Of a DNA stretch of 60,642 bases, positions 45,910 through 48,023 are shown one piece after another. The stretch is from a virus (taxonomy: Duplodnaviria > Heunggongvirae > Uroviricota > Caudoviricetes), in IMG/VR virus record IMGVR_UViG_2721755676_000007; one strand, written 5' to 3'. The notes below the pieces were generated by a model. The model did not search any database and was not told where the DNA came from. It was given only the letters and a program-made list of their open reading frames with translations. Within the stretch, counting starts at the first letter, position 1. Every line of letters begins with the position of its first letter. The position numbers and the translations under genes are program-made.

Positions 45910-46242
45910 TTAATGTGGTGTGCTTCGTGACAATAAATTAATAACCAACACACCGGCACAAATCAACATCATGCCTATAACGGCTGGCAGGTCCAGCCGT
46001 TGGCCGAAAACCCCCCATGACAGTAAGCTAATCAGGACAATACCGACTCCTGACCAGATAGCATAAGCAATCCCTGTAGGAATATAAGCCAGCGTCTGAG
46101 CTAATAACCAGAATGATGCACAGTAACAAATAATTGTACCAACAGATGGCCATAACCGTGTAAAACCTTCTGAAAACTTCATTAAGGTTGTACCAATGAC
46201 CTCTGCAAGTATTGCACCACCAAGATAAATATAAGGATTCAT
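45910..46242 (-). CDS. emrE: Small multidrug resistance efflux transporter EmrE
   Basis: 110-aa four-TM ORF MNPYIYLGGAILAEVIGTTLMKFSEGF, EmrE. Confidence 0.92.
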   Translation of the reverse strand: MNPYIYLGGAILAEVIGTTLMKFSEGFTRLWPSVGTIICYCASFWLLAQTLAYIPTGIAYAIWSGVGIVLISLLSWGVFGQRLDLPAVIGMMLICAGVLVINLLSRSTPH

Positions 46243-46266
46243 AGCATATTCTTTCTGGATTTGCCC

Positions 46267-47172
46267 CTATATTTCCAGACACCTGTTATCACTTAACCCA
46301 TTACTGGCTTGCTGCCGTAGATATTCCCGTGGCGAGCGATAACCCAGTGCACTATGCGGATGCCATTCGTTATAATGCTCGAACGCCTCTGCAAGGTTCT
46401 TTGCTGCCGTTAACCCGTCTGGTTTGGGCATGACACTGATGTAGTCACGCTTTATCGTTTTCACGAAGCTCTCTGCTATGCCGTTACTCTCCGGACTCCG
46501 CACCGCCGTGCTCTTCGGTTCAAGCCCCAACATCCGGGCAAACTGCCGTGTTTCATTAGCCCGGTAGCATGAACCATTATCCGTCAGCCACTCTACTGGA
46601 GACGCCGGAAGCTCGTTGCCGAAGCGGCGTTCCACCGCTCCCAGCATGACGTCCTGTACTGTTTCACTGTTGAAGCCGCCCGTAGTGACCGCCCAGTGCA
46701 GTGCCTCACGGTCACAGCAGTCCAGCGCGAACGTGACTCGCAGTTTTTCTCCGTTATCACAGCGGAACTCGAACCCGTCAGAGCACCATCGCTGATTACT
46801 TTCTTTCACAGCCACTCTGCCTGTATGTGCCCGTTTCGATGGCGGTACAGCAGGTTTTCGCTCAAGCAACAGCGCATTCTGGCGCATGATCCGGTAAACA
46901 CGTTTGGCATTGATCGCAGGCATACCATCAAGTTCTGCCTGTCTGCGAAGCAGCGCCCATACCCGACGATAACCATACGTGGGCAGCTCTCCGATAACAT
47001 GGTGTATACGGAGAAGCACATCCGTATCATCAGTGTGACGACTGCGGCGGCCATCCATCCAGTCATCGGTTCGTCTGAGAATGACGTGCAACTGCGCACG
47101 CGACACCCGGAGACAACGGCTGACTAAGCTTACTCCCCATCCCCGGGCAATAAGGGCGCGTGCGCTATCCAC
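46267..47172 (-). CDS. insD: IS2 transposase InsD (orfB)
   Basis: 301-aa [37 protein letters not shown] with DDE domain. Confidence 0.92.
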
Positions 47173-47495
47173 TTTTTTGCCCGTCCATATTCAACGGCTT
47201 CTTTGAGGAGTTCATTTTCCATCGTTTTCTTGCCGAGCAGGCGCTGGAGTTCTTTAATCTGCTTCATGGCGGCAGCAAGTTCAGAGGCAGGAACAACCTG
47301 TTCTCCGGCGGCGACAGCAGTAAGACTTCCTTCCTGGTATTGCTTACGCCAGAGAAATAACTGGCTGGCTGCTACACCATGTTGCCGGGCAACGAGGGAG
47401 ACCGTCATCCCCGGTTCAAAGCTCTGCTGAACAATTGCGATCTTTTCCTGTGTGGTACGCCGTCTGCGTTTCTCCGGTCCTAAGACATCAATCAT
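47130..47495 (-). CDS. insC: IS2 InsC (orfA)
   Basis: From [26 protein letters not shown]; overlaps insD as expected for the IS3-family frameshift arrangement. Confidence 0.88.
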
Positions 47496-48023
47496 CTGCT
47501 CTCCAATGACTAGTCTAAAAACTAGTATTAAGACTATCACTTAAATAAGTGATACTGGTTGTCTGGAGATTCAGGGGGCCAGTCTACTTTCCTGTTCAAA
47601 CTGGAGAGAATTGTACTACAGATTGAACTCAACTCACCGGTTTCATCATTGTGTATCCATTGATGTTCTTTTGTATACCCTCAATATCCGTTTCATCGCG
47701 GTACTCCGGCGACACTCCTTAAAAATCAGGTTCGGCTCACCTTTCCTGCCCGTTCTCCCCGGGTAGCAAACCGATAATACACCGTTCGCCAGTCCTTACT
47801 ATCAATGACCAAGATTCCTGCCCATATCATTTTAGCCGCAGCCTAATTTATGCTGGTTATTGTTACGTGTGAATTCAGTTAGCTGCATAAATTGTCACGG
47901 AAGTGATACATCGATATTATCGAGAAATTCACTCGAATTTATACGATTGAAACTGCACTTATATCTGTTTTAAATACTCCGAACACTCTTTACAACAACT
48001 GTGTGAAAATGGAGATAATTAAA

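Follow-up and report, generated by a model that had tools for sequence, protein, structure and literature searches.

What becomes of a drug-efflux gene when an insertion sequence lands between its promoter and its start codon? The locus that raises this question lies in the window analyzed here, a 60,642-nt stretch (IMG/VR record IMGVR_UViG_2721755676_000007) that represents an E. coli lambdoid prophage, which lies next to ybhC in the gal-bio interval. As in DLP12, emrE is placed between a ren remnant and ylcJ-ybcK, in a region with 41% GC compared to 50% for the whole window. An initial annotation had reported a complete 1,331-bp IS2 with CTTTC on both sides, a right inverted repeat (IRR) ending 13 bp before the emrE start codon and insC and insD transcribed toward emrE, and had proposed that the native emrE promoter is displaced or replaced, with the direction of any expression change left open. 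Our coordinates (Table 1) bear out this description. The element and both CTTTC copies were recovered, 13 bases (46243-46255) separate the IRR tip from the ATG, and insC and insD are encoded on the minus strand like emrE. Displacement of the promoter agrees with a transcription start site (TSS) mapped at −30 in K-12 (2 reads) and with a conserved upstream module of ~70 bp.

Table 1 Coordinates of the features in the window
Feature	Position	Strand	Description
IS10, complete	42718-44046		1,329 bp; transposase ORF 42825-44033, plus strand; 9-bp duplication ACCATAGCT at 42709-42717 and 44047-44055
Intrinsic-terminator-like hairpin and T tract	45853..45880	minus	30 nt past emrE stop; 10-pair stem with 5 GC pairs, then TTTGTT
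emrE	45910..46242	minus	Intact 110-aa SMR efflux transporter gene; ATG at 46242
Native emrE leader still joined to the gene	46243..46255	minus	13 nt
Target duplication CTTTC, copy 1	46251-46255		GAAAG in emrE sense; native −13..−9
IS2, complete	46256..47586	minus	1,331 bp; 1,329/1,331 identical to TB4019 copy
IRR (donor end)	46256-46296	minus	41 bp, TGGATTTGCCCC...; end facing emrE
orfB/insD	46267..47172	minus	rve integrase-core transposase domain; NCBIfam IS2 TnpB 713.1 bits (cut-off 597)
Outward-reading −35 hexamer TGGAAA of IS2 junction promoter	46272..46277	minus	16 nt from IRR tip
orfA/insC	47130..47495	minus	121 aa, HTH, IS2 repressor; NCBIfam IS2 TnpA 276.4 bits (cut-off 229)
A AAA AAG (A6G) programmed −1 frameshift window	47172..47178	minus	In orfA frame; motif per PMC3219604
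IRL (left inverted repeat)	47545-47586	minus	42 bp
Target duplication CTTTC, copy 2	47587-47591		Beyond IRL
Native emrE promoter with initial leader segment, displaced	47592..47650	minus	Fires into IRL of IS2
Outer-membrane beta-barrel gene (OMP_b-brl/Opacity-like)	48003-48752	plus	249 aa; inserted in ren, diverges from emrE
10.9-kb element	~19681-30566		Inside lambdoid prophage portal gene; flanked by imperfect repeat ATA[C/A]ATCGCCTT
Major capsid protein E gene in 10.9-kb element	22273-23400	minus	
D5_N/DUF5906 primase gene in 10.9-kb element	24551-26305	minus	
P4-type integrase gene in 10.9-kb element	29130-30371	minus	

IS2 is defined as an element of ~1.33 kb with imperfect inverted repeats of 41 (IRR) and 42 bp (IRL), of which IRR ends in CA-3′ and IRL in TA-3′ (PMC3299598, PMC3219604). 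We assigned the inserted element to IS2 because every testable defining feature was present, namely the length, the inverted repeats, the 5-bp target duplication, the −1 overlap of orfA and orfB with an A6G window and protein scores above the IS2-specific model cut-offs. Its right terminus reads TGGATTTGCCCCTATATTTCCAGACA... from 46256 onward, and its left terminus ends with ...GGGGGCCAGTCTA at 47586; the two repeats align with 32 identities and have the termini ...TCCA and TAGA.... The slip window, orfA and orfB are intact and on the emrE strand, and the encoded proteins contain the Pfam domains HTH_Tnp_1, rve and rve_3. A search of the whole window detected this one IS2 copy. It shares 1,300-1,303 of 1,331 positions with K-12-type copies (~2.3% divergence) and 1,326-1,329 of 1,331 (99.6-99.85%) with copies at other sites in other strains. 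Given the intact ends and reading frames and this near-identity to copies elsewhere, the element is apparently transposition competent. Comparison of the window copy with loci L001-L010 separated two IS2 sequence subtypes ~2.3% apart. PGAP labels one ‘IS3-like element IS2 family transposase’; for the other it gives just ‘IS3 family transposase’. The latter subtype includes the window copy, which still scores above the IS2-specific NCBIfam cut-offs.

The target gene was filed as emrE, since all testable defining features were found, and drug efflux is its predicted function. Its product scored 118.8 bits with Pfam PF00893 and 238.3 bits with the NCBIfam EmrE model NF042984 (cut-off 226). It is identical at 107 of 110 positions to the crystallized K-12 EmrE (PDB 3b5d), with the differences F79V, I89V and I101V and a conserved Glu14. 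In a genome-wide K-12 TSS map, a single emrE start was recorded at 567,508, corresponding to −30, with only 2 reads (PMC3415461 Table S1). Prophages with emrE next to ren and an unrelated prophage remnant next to fliE share about 70 bp upstream of the ATG, beyond which homology stops. Because this segment was retained in two unrelated contexts, emrE appears to carry its own upstream module (−70..−1), which contains an invariant TACAAT at −37..−32. In the window, TACAAT corresponds to 47610-47615 and the K-12 start to 47608. With its own promoter and terminator traveling with the gene, the start site being weakly supported at 2 reads, emrE is a promoter-gene-terminator ‘moron’ in the lambdoid prophage next to ybhC. 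K-12 MG1655 DLP12 likewise contains an IS3-family element in the ren region upstream of emrE (IS3C in renD, 280 bp from the ATG), but that insertion, unlike the one in the window, leaves the 70-bp promoter module on the gene. As it carries IS3C, K-12 MG1655 (L019/L020, 566777-568034) offers no undisturbed reference for read-in from the phage early operon.

We also noted a predicted hairpin spanning native −41..−1 (window 47592-47619 plus 46243-46255), in which AUUCUCUCC pairs with GGAAAGAAU and GUAGUA with UGCUAU. On transcripts that enter from phage genes upstream, it would hide the Shine-Dalgarno (SD) sequence and the start codon; transcripts from −30 would not form it, and IS2 splits it. 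As an argument about expression, sequestration of the native SD was set aside, since the hairpin is probably absent from transcripts starting at −30. An Rfam scan of 45000-48300 returned no RNA family.

With the TSS at −30 and the insertion at −13/−9, IS2 lies inside the emrE 5′ untranslated region. The full-length element entered this leader by the usual copy-out/paste-in route with a 5-bp duplication. The emrE promoter and the first ~17 nt of the leader are now 1,336 bp upstream, directed into IRL. The ribosome-binding site AGGAAAG (core AGGA) is also split, as AG|GAAAG, so that position −14 carries the terminal A of IS2 in place of G. Within −20..−4, the best anti-SD pairing weakens from −4.3 kcal/mol in the native sequence (CAGGAA at −16) to −0.9 kcal/mol with IS2. 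The native IS2 promoter is a weak, OrfA-repressed extended −10 promoter (PMC3299598, PMC3219604). Transcripts from it or from the displaced emrE promoter would have to cross the entire IS2, and most of that path would be ~860 nt of orfB, translated only after a rare frameshift, so Rho-dependent polarity is expected. The right end of IS2 would supply a −35 element alone, and no usable −10 follows at 17 bp, the spacing that is needed. A sigma-70 scan of the last 413 bp of IS2 gave no 9/12 match, and in published data promoter activity of the 150-bp IS2 right end was undetectable, as was downstream expression from a promoter placed >150 bp inside an IS3 backbone (PMC12095673). Because the promoter is separated from the gene, the SD core is interrupted and a good hybrid promoter is lacking, the best explanation is that the insertion probably lowers emrE expression, the direction being down and not up. 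The net outcome would be a knock-down of a pump whose expression was weak to begin with, adding a loss-type allele, and no activation, to the many IS2 insertions of this locus.

Among the alternatives, we regard a neutral insertion as rather unlikely. It assumes that native emrE transcription is so weak that residual read-through across IS2 yields a similarly low level and no phenotype. The 2 reads of the K-12 start are consistent with this, and the displaced promoter is still directed toward emrE. No intrinsic terminator was predicted inside IS2 on the emrE strand, which makes some read-through possible and counts against a knock-down. On the other side stand 1.3 kb of RNA, mostly untranslated orfB, that invite Rho polarity, and the damaged SD core. 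In the gal operon, the classical, strongly polar orientation of IS2 is opposite to the one found here. The polarity of IS2 insertions is established and is cited in PMC12095673, and like the polar gal insertions (ref. 46 there), the window places IS2 between promoter and gene, with downstream expression expected to be Rho dependent. Two features of translation initiation point away from a knock-down. Only 24 nt separate the TAG stop of orfB from the emrE ATG, where re-initiation may occur. In addition, the predicted unfolding cost of the start region falls from 9-12 to 6-7 kcal/mol on loss of the upstream leader, and this lower cost could partly offset the weaker SD.

Insertion sequences that separate a promoter from its gene or supply a −35 element have been textbook knowledge since the 1970s-80s. 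Jaurin and Normark reportedly described an IS2-ampC hybrid promoter in 1983, and Kobayashi et al. and Jellen-Ritter and Kern (both 2001) reportedly described E. coli alleles with IS2 upstream of acrEF. Activation of this kind would raise cationic-drug efflux here, either through a hybrid of the IRR −35 TGGAAA and the flanking −10 AAGAAT, with a start at or adjacent to the ATG and thus a leaderless mRNA, or through read-through from inside IS2. IS2-type activation of emrE is less likely than a decrease, and we consider it unlikely as an account of this allele. The outward −35 in IRR is well established (PMC3299598, PMC3219604), and the orientation in the window puts IRR next to emrE. We located the hexamer with the published rule for the junction promoter Pjunc, in which the 17-bp spacer consists of 16 nt of IRR and a 1-bp junction spacer (PMC3299598, PMC3219604). 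TGGAAA is present at 46277-46272, but a spacer of 17 bp leads to AAAGAA, and one of 18 bp to AAGAAT. In the latter, the two most conserved −10 positions are kept and only 5 nt remain up to the emrE ATG; mRNA from the 18-bp version, if it fires, would therefore be leaderless and lack an SD. Published IS2 junction promoters tolerate only 17 bp; those with a longer spacer (18 bp) were completely non-functional (PMC3299598). Since the defining −10 at 17 bp is absent, the junction is not classed as an IS hybrid promoter by its predicted elements. The absence of promoter activity from the IS2 right end alone, already mentioned, likewise speaks against activation.

In IS2-ampC, as in the window, the outward IRR −35 hexamer was set beside host DNA, but a resident −10 was present there at the optimal 17 bp, as summarized in PMC9330008, whereas the sole −10-like hexamer near emrE sits at 18 bp and abuts the ATG. 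The acrEF cases count against a knock-down. In laboratory evolution (PMC9783932), co-directional IS2 just upstream of acrEF activated these genes experimentally, with insertions at −86/−90 and in one case 10 bp upstream of the acrF start codon. These alleles share with ours the same element just upstream of a drug-efflux gene and a 5-bp duplication. They were, however, drug selected and their activation was measured, whereas the emrE allele is known from its sequence alone, and its features speak against a good hybrid promoter. Two further sources were considered for outward promoter activity. Steinrueck & Guet 2017 was not retained as support, as its source data concern the IS2 5′ terminus (~3-fold), whereas the 3′ terminus faces emrE here; PMC4340650 contains nothing on IS2 promoters.

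We then compared IS2 insertions around emrE across 5,426 complete E. coli genomes. A probe combining emrE and IS2 in the window arrangement identified 31 genomes with IS2 near emrE on the same strand, and a probe with inverted IS2 identified 20. Sixteen loci from these matches were mapped after in-silico excision of IS2, each with its own perfect 5-bp duplication. Together they define at least 13 independent IS2 sites from −336 to +429 relative to the emrE ATG (~770 bp), including the window. Five are co-directional, at −126 (CFSAN029787), −13 (window), +11 (NCTC9100), +45 and +298, and eight are in the opposite orientation, at −336, −173, −101, −46 (HL15/SF10), +34, +227, +355 and +425. The +45 allele occurs in at least 19 genomes (DA33133 and at least 18 others) with the fliE-adjacent prophage remnant. 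Four further co-directional sites were located in ybcK and ybcM. At 5 of the 13 sites the emrE coding sequence is interrupted, indicating that loss of emrE is tolerated. The lack of an orientation bias, together with five insertions that destroy the gene, also argues against activation; both orientations and common knock-outs fit a tolerated, loss-type target better than selection for activation.

As a hot-spot control, we used a 460-bp ybcO/ninE segment of this prophage, located 5.6 kb away, for which 21 genomes carried IS2 within ~1.4 kb versus 31 for emrE. Among the 12 of 21 control matches listed, IS2 was at least 590 bp away and never inside the segment. Hence, the whole nin region is rich in IS2, and emrE is distinctive only for the clustering directly at the gene. 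A rough copy-level estimate puts IS2 density at emrE 10- to 15-fold over a uniform expectation, a figure that ignores shared ancestry and the AT-rich, non-essential nature of the DNA. A more far-reaching interpretation would take the emrE start as an IS2 hot spot under recurrent selection, where IS2 serves as a crude switch that turns a costly pump on or off or re-tunes it, and where the −13 allele makes leaderless emrE mRNA from the IRR-flank hybrid promoter, so that expression is rewired and not lost. We consider this scenario highly improbable. As a separate observation, the HL15/SF10 allele (L016) carries an opposite-orientation IS2 at native −46..−42, just upstream of the conserved GTAGTACAAT and between the −35-like and −10-like elements. 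This insertion puts the IS2 5′ terminus next to the emrE −10, and in a reporter study this terminus gave ~3-fold outward expression.

The finding is ordinary in that IS2 events around emrE have occurred many times in other strains. Element, gene and kind of event are already known, similar IS2-emrE alleles are annotated in public genomes, and only the precise site is new. With lowered emrE expression, the intrinsic tolerance of the strain to dyes and quaternary cations would be partly lost; with raised expression, the locus would exemplify IS-driven efflux activation in nature. In both cases it concerns one strain-private allele. Because emrE was struck repeatedly by IS2, with 13 or more independent events in a 770-bp stretch among 5,426 genomes, its presence as reported by resistance-gene callers guarantees no expressed pump.

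In other public alleles of this region, as in the window, a 1,331-bp IS2 and its 5-bp duplication lie no more than a few hundred bp from the emrE start. The −13 site of the window, by contrast, did not recur. A 120-nt probe for the IRR-emrE junction had no match at ≥80% coverage among the 5,426 complete E. coli genomes, and searches with the exact 33-mer junction found no copy in GTDB representative genomes or in JGI metagenomes. Judged by these comparisons, the −13 allele is private to this strain among all collections searched. For its origin, the 5-bp flank match, with a chance of ~1/1,024, was complemented by reconstruction of the empty site as the stronger test. In-silico removal of IS2 and one CTTTC gave 400 bp matching three E. 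coli records from two strains (WP8-S17-ESBL-05 and AW1.7) at 100%. The flanks are collinear with the WP8-S17-ESBL-05 prophage (L006) at 100.000% over 2,209 bp and 99.969% over 13,056 bp. With a perfect duplication, an intact IS2 and flanks identical to those of relatives without IS2, the locus reads as a simple, recent IS2 transposition. The contrary view, that the junction reflects an assembly artifact, an IS2-mediated rearrangement or one arm of a composite transposon with an IS10 that lies 2.2 kb from IS2 on the far side of ybcK-ylcJ-emrE, can be dismissed with near certainty in light of the perfect duplication, the exact empty-site reconstruction and the collinearity of both flanks with L006.

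IS2, IS10 and a 10.9-kb satellite-like element are the three extra mobile insertions relative to the closest relative of the prophage. IS10 resides between ybcK and a P22AR-domain gene and is absent from the near-identical WP8-S17-ESBL-05 prophage. It brackets ybcK-ylcJ-emrE together with IS2, to which it is unrelated. A composite transposon formed by the two was rejected, since they belong to different families and have separate target duplications (5 bp and 9 bp). The 10.9-kb element, whose genes are listed in Table 1, resembles a capsid-forming satellite of the PICI type that sits in a structural gene of the prophage. It occurs with both junctions in 52 of the 5,426 complete E. coli genomes, and in its relatives a BRO protein and a small terminase subunit are also annotated. 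No tRNA was detected in the window. Lastly, the beta-barrel gene that diverges from emrE has ren remnants on both sides (~47646-47863 and beyond 49100) and a 10/12 sigma-70-like promoter close by at 47892-47920.
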